Shown here: positions 19,681 through 60,435 of the stretch, piece by piece
Layout of the letters: every line of letters starts with the position of its first letter
How positions within the stretch are numbered: the first letter of the stretch is position 1
From: Escherichia coli
GTDB lineage: Bacteria; Pseudomonadota; Gammaproteobacteria; Enterobacterales; Enterobacteriaceae
Strand: one strand, 5' to 3'
Assembly: GCF_024298765.1 (NCBI RefSeq)
Contig: NZ_CP101210.1
Length of the DNA stretch: 64,000 nt
The notes under the pieces: generated by a model
Seen by the model: only the letters and a program-made list of their open reading frames with translations
Told to the model about the DNA's origin: nothing
Databases searched by the model: none
Translations under genes and position numbers: made by a program

Positions 19681-19905
19681 ATGCCGGATGTGGCCTACGG
19701 ATCGGCACAGACCTGTAGGCATGATAAGACGCGTCAAGCGTCGCATCAGGCATTGTGCGCCAGCTGCCGGATGCGGCGTGAACGCCTTATCCGGCCTACG
19801 GTTCGGCACAGACTTGTAGGCATGATAAGACGCGTCAGCGTCGCATCAGGCATTGTGCGCCAACGGCCGGATGCGGCGTAAACGCCTTGTCCGGCCTACG
19901 GCACG
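19681..19905. repeat. REP/BIME cluster
   Basis: four alternating gccggatgcggcgtgaacgccttatccggcctac-type units. Confidence 0.8.
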
Positions 19906-26455: not shown

Positions 26456-27487
26456 ATGTCTGCATTTACCCCGGCAAGTGAAGTCTTGCTGCGTCACAGT
26501 GATGATTTCGAACAAAGCCGTATTCTTTTTGCCGGAGACTTACAGGATGACCTGCCCGCGCGTTTAGATACCGCGGCCAGCCGTGCTCATACCCAGCAAT
26601 TCCACCACTGGCAGGTGTTAAGCCGCCAGATGGGGGATAACGCCCGTTTTAGTCTGGTCGCCACGGCGGATGATGTCGCAGATTGCGATACGCTGATTTA
26701 CTACTGGCCGAAGAACAAACCGGAAGCCCAGTTCCAGTTGATGAATTTACTTTCTCTGCTGCCAGTGGGCACGGATATTTTTGTCGTTGGCGAGAACCGC
26801 AGCGGCGTGCGCAGCGCCGAGCAGATGCTGTCAGATTATGCGCCGTTGAATAAAATGGACAGCGCTCGTCGCTGTGGCCTCTATTTTGGTCGTCTGGAAA
26901 AACAGCCAGTATTTGATGCCGATAAATTCTGGGGCGAATACAGCGTCGATGGCCTGACGGTCAAAACGCTGCCTGGCGTGTTTAGCCGCGACGGTCTGGA
27001 TGTCGGTAGCCAGTTGCTGCTCTCGACGTTAACCCCGCACACGAAAGGTAAAGTGCTGGATGTCGGCTGTGGCGCGGGCGTACTTTCGGTTGCCTTTGCG
27101 CGCCATTCGCCGAAAATTCGTCTCACTCTGTGCGATGTCTCTGCACCAGCGGTAGAAGCCAGCCGCGCAACACTTGCGGCCAACGGTGTTGAAGGTGAAG
27201 TCTTTGCCAGTAACGTCTTTTCCGAGGTGAAAGGTCGTTTTGATATGATCATCTCCAACCCGCCGTTCCACGATGGGATGCAAACCAGCCTGGATGCCGC
27301 GCAAACGCTGATTCGCGGCGCGGTGCGTCATCTTAATAGCGGCGGCGAGCTGCGAATTGTAGCGAACGCCTTCCTGCCTTATCCGGACGTGCTGGATGAG
27401 ACATTTGGCTTCCACGAAGTGATCGCGCAAACCGGGCGCTTCAAGGTGTATCGCGCCATTATGACCCGCCAGGCGAAGAAAGGTTGA
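26456..27487 (+). CDS. rsmC: 16S rRNA m2G1207 methyltransferase RsmC
   Basis: 343 aa; SAM-MTase motif [11 protein letters not shown] and NPPFH. Confidence 0.9.
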
Positions 27488-27502
27488 GTATCTGATATAT
27501 GT

Positions 27503-27548
27503 CGCCGCATACCGTGTCGGATGCGGCGTACACGCCTTATCTGACCGA
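27503..27548. repeat. REP element
   Basis: gtcggatgcggcgtacacgccttatctgac. Confidence 0.6.
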
Positions 27549-27686
27549 CAAACGAATTATCCACAATCCGCTGATGGACATTTTTCCAGCAATTACACCT
27601 CTGTCGATAATTAACTATTGACGAAAAGCTGAAAACCACTAGAATGCGCCTCCGTGGTAGCAATTCTTTTTAAGAATTGACGGTAT

Positions 27687-27773
27687 GCGAAGGTGGCGGA
27701 ATTGGTAGACGCGCTAGCTTCAGGTGTTAGTGTCCTTACGGACGTGGGGGTTCAAGTCCCCCCCCTCGCACCA
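27687..27773 (+). tRNA. leuQ: tRNA-Leu (CAG), first copy
   Basis: 87-nt GCGAAGGTGGCGGAATTGGTAGACGCG...CCCCCCCCTCGCACCA with encoded CCA. Confidence 0.95.
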
Positions 27774-27801
27774 AAAACCACGTTGATATTGCTCGCACTG
27801 G

Positions 27802-27888
27802 GCGAAGGTGGCGGAATTGGTAGACGCGCTAGCTTCAGGTGTTAGTGTTCTTACGGACGTGGGGGTTCAAGTCCCCCCCCTCGCACCA
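27802..27888 (+). tRNA. leuP: tRNA-Leu (CAG), second copy
   Basis: same 87-nt sequence with one substitution (gtgttc instead of gtgtcc). Confidence 0.95.
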
Positions 27889-27922
27889 AACGAGGCAATA
27901 TCAAAAAAAGTAAGATGACTGT

Positions 27923-28009
27923 GCGAAGGTGGCGGAATTGGTAGACGCGCTAGCTTCAGGTGTTAGTGTCCTTACGGACGTGGGGGTTCAAGTCCCCCCC
28001 CTCGCACCA
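27923..28009 (+). tRNA. leuV: tRNA-Leu (CAG), third copy
   Basis: identical to first copy. Confidence 0.95.
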
Positions 28010-28047
28010 ATTATCTTTACTTCCTTTCTTGTTTCTTCCCTGTTTTA

Positions 28048-28284
28048 TCATCCCTGCTTCAAATTCATTATCATCAGCATGATGCCAGCAATAAGCGCCA
28101 GGCACGATGGCAGCAAAACGTAATGCCGCAACTGTTTGTGATACAGCATCACCGGCGTCAATACTAATCCCATCAGAATGATAATCCGCCATTGATCCGG
28201 CGATAAATCCGCATACATCAGCCCTGCAATCAGCAATCCCGGCAGCAACACTCCCCAGCCACTGCCCAGCGTACGTTGCAACAT
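28048..28284 (-). CDS. yjjZ: small membrane protein YjjZ (DUF1435)
   Basis: 78 aa from MLQRTLGSGWGVLLPGLLIAG; divergent from fhuF. Confidence 0.7.
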   Translation of the reverse strand: MLQRTLGSGWGVLLPGLLIAGLMYADLSPDQWRIIILMGLVLTPVMLYHKQLRHYVLLPSCLALIAGIMLMIMNLKQG

Positions 28285-60354: not shown

Positions 60355-60435
60355 TTAGCGCGGTGCGGATGTGCGCCAACACACCCGCACCGCTAATCAC
60401 AATCCCTATTTCAAAGGAATAGTAATCATGACTGA
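60355..60435 (-). ncRNA. symR: SymR antisense sRNA region (boundaries approximate)
   Basis: known cis-antisense RNA over the symE translation start; coordinates inferred from symE position, not from mapped ends. Confidence 0.45.

Follow-up and report, generated by a model that had tools for sequence, protein, structure and literature searches.

The window, a stretch of 64 kb of DNA, contains exactly three tRNA genes as detected by ARAGORN, all of them tRNA-Leu genes with anticodon CAG and all on the + strand. Each gene is 87 nt long, encodes a class II tRNA with the CCA present in the gene, and matches Rfam RF00005 with a score of 48.5 bits, as compared to a gathering score of 29. The starts of the genes lie 115 and 121 bp apart, leaving spacers of 28 and 34 nt. 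Copies 1, 2 and 3 equal, as exact strings, the leuQ (b4370), leuP (b4369) and leuV (b4368) genes of Escherichia coli K-12 MG1655 (NC_000913.3). The array is laid out as follows.

27687-27773, + strand: leuQ, tRNA-Leu(CAG), 87 nt, C at position 48 (C48); ARAGORN, Rfam 48.5 bits; same as K-12 leuQ
27774-27801, + strand: spacer 1, 28 nt; same as K-12, ends in GG before leuP
27802-27888, + strand: leuP, tRNA-Leu(CAG), 87 nt, T at position 48 (T48, window position 27849); ARAGORN, Rfam 48.5 bits; same as K-12 leuP
27889-27922, + strand: spacer 2, 34 nt; one base from K-12 (A27897)
27923-28009, + strand: leuV, tRNA-Leu(CAG), 87 nt, C48; ARAGORN, Rfam 48.5 bits; same as K-12 leuV

An earlier, sequence-only reading of this DNA had placed three 87-nt tRNA-Leu(CAG) genes at the same outer coordinates, spaced about 115 bp apart and with one variable-arm substitution in the second copy. 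ARAGORN returned these boundaries and this anticodon, with RF00005 matching each copy; the spacing is as given above, and alignment of the three copies locates the substitution as C48T at window position 27849. The comparison with K-12 leuQPV that the same reading had suggested shows the three genes to be identical base for base, including the T of leuP. Thus the array is an already known, textbook tRNA operon, and its variant is the published leuP allele. We regard it as all but certain that this is the chromosomal E. coli leuQ-leuP-leuV operon, with T48 as the normal allele of leuP and no mobile element attached, and no observation speaks against it.

The array represents three of the four cellular tRNA-Leu1 (CAG) genes, whose products read CUG, the most frequent codon. 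In 24 neighbouring genes CUG accounts for 49% of leucine codons and is the commonest codon (5.3%), which fits with several Leu(CAG) gene copies. The fourth gene, leuT, has a mature sequence equal to that of leuQ and leuV, with C48 in K-12, but lies at another locus in a mixed tRNA operon, argX-hisR-leuT-proM.

Structures of the tRNA copies were evaluated on an imposed cloverleaf; free minimum-free-energy (MFE) folding of a single copy gave no cloverleaf and weak z-scores, which is usual for tRNAs and uninformative. All three copies carry an A5-C79 mismatch in the acceptor stem (window positions 27691/27765 and the equivalents). Morganellaceae have G5-U79 instead, and a clade of Enterobacter and Lelliottia has C5 with C79 in copies 1 and 2, and A5-U79 in copy 3.

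The middle copy and its T48 allele

Position 48 is the only variable column among the three copies; the middle one has T there and the outer two have C. Read from the sequence, the variable-arm stem consists of 4 bp (G46-C57, U47-A56, C48-G55 and C49-G54) and carries the loop UUAC. T48 converts C48-G55 of leuP to U48-G55, which keeps the pairing at a cost of ~2.9 kcal/mol in the imposed cloverleaf (-30.0 vs -27.1). The change is probably near-neutral in effect. The variable arm is not known to act as an identity element for E. coli LeuRS.

PMC12472396 notes that leuP differs by a single nucleotide, and a tRNA-seq preprint (bioRxiv 10.1101/2020.02.21.958157) lists (leuP) separately from the identical set (leuQ leuT leuV). 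The exact T48 gene is found in 4536 of 5429 E. coli records, and at least 91% of the E. coli genomes with an intact array possess T48. Outside E. coli, a scan for the T48 variable arm gave at least 120 Enterobacterales loci; the matches listed include 44 three-copy arrays, most of which were verified as adjoining rsmC, usually followed by yjjZ and fhuF. Among the matches listed, the order C-T-C occurs in 30 of these 44 arrays and C-C-T in 6, although the arrays were collected through T48 itself, which overestimates its retention. The C-T-C arrays come from E. albertii, Salmonella, Citrobacter, Klebsiella, Raoultella, Kosakonia, Phytobacter, Pseudocitrobacter, Intestinirhabdus and others. Because T48 is shared with K-12, with most E. 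coli and with other genera, the leuP allele is old and orthologous rather than a quirk of one strain; on these sequence comparisons, T48 is the standard, ancient allele of leuP and is not specific to this strain.

Whether the U48 isodecoder does something of its own is a separate question. A leuP tRNA that differs functionally (in stability, processing, fragments or modification), and that is held in the middle position by selection against gene conversion, would explain why the C-T-C order persists in at least 12 genera despite otherwise identical tRNA copies only 28 to 34 nt apart, and why T48 is so common in intact E. coli arrays. It would also sit well with a tally in which 24 of 39 genomes picked up through a T48 leuT gene also carry T48 in the rsmC-linked array, among the matches listed. 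A sample selected on T48, with the inflated retention that this brings, cannot show that selection maintains T48. Among the matches listed, moreover, Enterobacter, Lelliottia, Pluralibacter and Trabulsiella either have T48 in copy 3 or lack it, and leuP has been lost altogether in O157:H7 and other strains by collapse of the array to one copy. The lone leuT gene has T48 in many Enterobacterales (L005, L015, L036, L069 and 35 other loci) as compared to C48 in K-12, so that genera differ in which paralogue has which state, and the two states seem interchangeable. A selected function for U48 is therefore improbable, and the reading of T48 as an old, near-neutral allele is preferred.

The middle copy might instead have arisen by recent mutation in this strain alone, be in decay, or reflect a sequencing error. 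This idea draws on T48 being the sole difference among three otherwise identical genes and on the U-G pair being weaker than C-G by the ~2.9 kcal/mol given above, but it is ruled out, for practical purposes completely, by the population and cross-genus data: the same T in K-12 leuP and in the 4536 E. coli records, its place in the middle copy of 30 of 44 rsmC-linked three-copy arrays of other Enterobacteriaceae (among the matches listed), a retained pairing with an Rfam score equal to that of the neighbouring copies, and the handling of leuP as a distinct expressed gene in the tRNA-seq work.

The array itself varies within E. coli. Of 5426 genomes, 4964 have the leuQ-leuP junction and 4983 have the leuP-leuV junction, and ~8% of complete genomes are without one or the other. 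Only a few of the 893 E. coli records that have no exact T48 copy were sampled. Gene conversion was considered for these records and rejected, as the sampled cases were either collapsed arrays or T48 copies with an extra substitution; a clean C-C-C array was not found among these few. In O157:H7 strains and in TUM11356 the array has collapsed to a single C48 gene that has the upstream flank of leuQ and the downstream flank of leuV (single copies at L123 1778-1864, L129 801-887 and L124 1897-1983). An O111:H8 strain has a leuP that combines T48 with C26T (L126 916-1002), and E. albertii has a C24T substitution (L004); both are confined to leuP, and each changes a D-stem G-C pair to G-U. These extra substitutions, a very small sample, might point to a constraint that is a little relaxed in the middle copy.

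Several assemblies contain tRNA copies of 85-89 nt (L081, L100, L122, L038 and L068), which are length variants of the C8 run of the T-arm, or, in L100, of its G5 run. An indel hotspot has been reported for the C8 run of leuP, leuQ, leuV and leuT (PMC8510543), and the C8 and G5 variants fit either this hotspot or homopolymer sequencing errors. A separate candidate, a plasmid-borne tRNA-Leu, was dismissed on inspection of one match (L130, NZ_CP170379.1, a 294-kb "plasmid"), which is a chromosomal wec-thrP-argX-hisR-leuT-proM-aslB segment. This record probably represents a piece of the chromosome or a wrongly assigned replicon, and not a case of plasmid-borne tRNA.

Chromosomal setting

The genes on either side of the array are core genes of the E. 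coli chromosome.

26456-27487, + strand: rsmC, upstream neighbour, encoding the 16S rRNA m2G1207 methyltransferase (ORF of 343 aa; annotation)
28048-28284, - strand: yjjZ (DUF1435, 78 aa), convergent downstream neighbour (annotation in 2014C-3338 and K-12)

The stop codon of yjjZ lies 38 bp after leuV, and the annotated gene order rsmC-leuQPV-yjjZ-fhuF is the same in K-12 and in E. coli 2014C-3338. A 901-bp query around the array has a 100% match in 2014C-3338, and 5405 of 5426 complete E. coli genomes cover at least 80% of the query, where the annotation is always rsmC, three tRNA-Leu genes and yjjZ. Many of the matches have coverage of 81-88% because the region between rsmC and leuQ differs in length and in REP content. 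On a larger scale, blastn shows positions 15400-40303 of the window to be collinear with 2014C-3338 at 99.74% identity with one gap. The annotation of this block in 2014C-3338 consists of core genes only: deoA, deoC, yjjI, yjjW, yjjV, yjjU, ytjA, osmY, prfC, yjjG, rimI, holD, rsmC, the three tRNA genes, yjjZ, fhuF, bglJ, yjjQ, yjjP, yjjB, dnaT, dnaC, yjjA, opgB and lgoD/R/T. The array serves as an anchor that puts the window in the rsmC-fhuF region of an E. coli chromosome, the closest strain being 2014C-3338.

In that annotation no integrase lies within ~12 kb on either side of the array. The 64-kb window has three matches to the 28-nt tRNA 3' end, one per gene (0.00 expected from shuffles), and contains no further att-like repeat of it, even with 3 mismatches allowed. 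The sequence-only reading had stated that no integrase or island is attached, and the collinearity with core genes of 2014C-3338 and the unrepeated tRNA 3' end bear this out. That the array borders an inserted island or prophage, in the manner of leuX, was worth considering since tRNA genes are frequent integration sites and a symE/symR region is present elsewhere in the window, but it has next to no probability and is ruled out for the window, as yjjZ, fhuF, bglJ and yjjQ come directly after the array as in K-12, ~12 kb per side is collinear with a genome annotated as integrase-free, and no att repeat accompanies the tRNA genes. The leuX gene, too, is chromosomal in E. coli and encodes a leucine tRNA; it is a single gene with anticodon CAA that often has an integrase and an island downstream, and it differs from leuQPV, which has core genes on both sides. 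The chromosomal operon described above is thus the reading that we retain.

The locus resembles that of K-12 in its tRNA genes, including T48 of leuP, in spacer 1, in its promoter, in its leader bar one base, and in its neighbours rsmC and yjjZ-fhuF. It differs at two bases, with A rather than the G of K-12 at 27897 in spacer 2, and C rather than the T of K-12 at 27681 in the leader. A further difference is in the rsmC-leuQ intergenic region, which is 199 bp here (27488-27686) as compared to 267 bp in K-12 (L001 3403-3669); one REP-like palindrome is present (~27501-27549) in place of the larger REP cluster of K-12, and the region is shorter here because of the additional REP-like sequence in K-12.

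Two other features found by Rfam in the window are unrelated to the tRNA array: a SymR antitoxin RNA at 60357-60433 (- strand, 93.4 bits), and two tandem copies of naRNA4, a REP-derived nucleoid-associated RNA, at 19718-19896 (- strand).

Transcription and processing of the precursor

Elements of a single transcription unit surround the three genes.

27618-27623 and 27640-27645, + strand: sigma-70 promoter, -35 TTGACG and -10 TAGAAT with a 16-bp spacer (10/12 in a consensus scan)
27646-27653, + strand: GC-rich discriminator GCGCCTCC, after the -10
28010-28090, + strand: C-rich, G-poor unstructured 3' region that overlaps the 3' end of yjjZ, presumed zone of Rho-dependent termination

From the position of the promoter, transcription would start at ~27652-27654. 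The -35, the -10 and the discriminator are unchanged across 13 genera, and the region from the -35 to leuQ is the same as in K-12 except for the one leader base. Activation of the leuV promoter by FIS figures in the title of Ross et al. 1999, as cited in PMC2885671, and is mentioned in PMC1468432. One strong sigma-70 promoter, reportedly FIS-activated, is predicted to transcribe leuQ, leuP and leuV as a single precursor. At the other end, no terminator-like site was found on the + strand after leuV in a search for intrinsic terminators. The first 80 nt after leuV contain 28% C and 9% G, as would be expected of sequence on which Rho loads, and transcription may end by Rho-dependent termination within this C-rich, structure-free stretch.

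The processing of the K-12 transcript has been studied directly. RNase P separates the tRNAs of leuQ leuP leuV and RNase E is not needed; the transcript ends at an unstructured Rho-dependent terminator, and its tail of ~40 nt is removed by PNPase and RNase II (PMC2190699). Mutants with rnpA49 accumulate the intermediates QPV, QP and pQ (PMC2190699), and RNase P defects are lethal in part because leuQPV processing is lost (PMC7049720). Processing of leuT is reported to be dependent on RNase E (PMC2190699).

In the window, the bases after the CCA are AAAACC for leuQ, AACGAG for leuP and AUUAUC for leuV, the same as in PMC2190699, and post-CCA bases as found here have been reported for the pathway that is independent of RNase E and dependent on RNase P (PMC2190699, PMC7049720). 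The two bases before the mature 5' end, N(-2)N(-1), are GG for leuP, GU for leuV and AU for leuQ. By analogy to K-12, on which both the RNase P pathway and the Rho dependence of this operon rest, RNase P rather than RNase E would separate the three tRNAs, exonucleases would trim the 3' ends that carry the encoded CCA, and PNPase and RNase II would remove the 3' tail of the leuQPV transcript.

The published valV-valW operon is similar in its separation by RNase P, its Rho-dependent termination and the trimming of its tail by PNPase and RNase II (PMC2190699), and differs in consisting of different tRNAs, two genes only, that are 4 nt apart. Structural anti-determinants, such as the stem-loop of the valVW leader or GG at N(-1)N(-2), reportedly determine which sites RNase P cuts first in polycistronic precursors (PMC9433436). 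The leuQ leader here also has a conserved hairpin, described below.

Helices that bracket the tRNAs

Four helices can be drawn in the leader, the spacers and the sequence after leuV.

27661-27668 with 27672-27679, + strand: H1, leader hairpin CAAUUCUU / AAGAAUUG, 7 nt upstream of leuQ; brackets no tRNA
27653-27658 with 27777-27782: H2, leader CGUGGU with spacer 1 ACCACG; brackets leuQ
27783-27795 with 27891-27904: H3, spacer 1 UUGAUAUUGCUCG with spacer 2 CGA-G-GCAAUAUCAA; brackets leuP
27908-27918 with 28011-28022: H4, spacer 2 AAGUAAGAUGA with the sequence after leuV; brackets leuV

A repeat search finds H1 (8/8 complementary) and the 10-bp core of H3 (10/10) as perfect inverted repeats, and H1, H2 and H3 all appear when the whole transcript is folded to its MFE structure. 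Across genera, spacer 1 keeps 23-28 of its 28 bases, as compared to 12-28 of 45 bases after leuV outside Escherichia; in E. albertii 41 of the 45 bases downstream of leuV are kept. The spacers are much better conserved than the DNA after leuV, apparently because of RNA structure. Across Enterobacteriaceae the helices are kept, with compensatory substitutions.

In 43 aligned arrays, 96.7% of cells are paired in H1-H3, as compared to 22-48% when the partner strand is slid, with the helix model itself being derived from one of the aligned sequences. H1 is paired in 99.6% of cells in these arrays and includes two pairs that change on both sides (GC in 33, AU in 5 and GU in 4; AU in 25 and UA in 17), and the H3 pair 27790/27897 is U-G in 21 arrays, C-G in 13 and U-A in 5. 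H2 is almost invariant and is thus uninformative on covariation. For H4, 89% of cells are paired as compared to 36-49% when slid, and four pairs are changed on both sides. With the tRNAs masked, bracketing is also observed in Morganellaceae, in the two-copy arrays of Xenorhabdus, Morganella, Proteus and Photorhabdus, where the flanks are unrelated in sequence. Shuffle tests on single loci are only moderate, with z from about -2 to -2.8, -0.2 for Proteus and -4.2 for Photorhabdus.

By analogy, the leader hairpin of leuQ may play a role like that of the valV leader stem-loop, and the bracketing helices together with this hairpin probably shape the order of processing. A more specific reading, which is possible but on balance doubtful, is that the covarying leader hairpin and the separate helices of leuQ, leuP and leuV hide the A/U-rich spacers from RNase E, stop identical tRNAs from mispairing with one another and, with the GG of leuP, set a 3'-to-5' order of cleavage by RNase P; retention of U48 might then share the same constraint. 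In Mohanty and Kushner (PMC2190699), stems predicted at the cleavage sites appear only as data not shown, and the helix architecture of the precursor has not previously been described in detail. It is a modest new detail of a known kind rather than a new system. Taken together, the ancient leuP allele, the single-copy arrays of O157:H7 and the bracketing helices that covary add modestly to the well-studied RNase P-dependent processing of polycistronic tRNA transcripts.

The base of spacer 2 that sets this strain apart from K-12 falls within H3. A27897 turns a U-G pair of this leuP-bracketing helix into U-A, and is a minority allele of spacer 2, found exactly in 423 records as compared to 4557 with one mismatch; K-12 and most E. 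coli have G.
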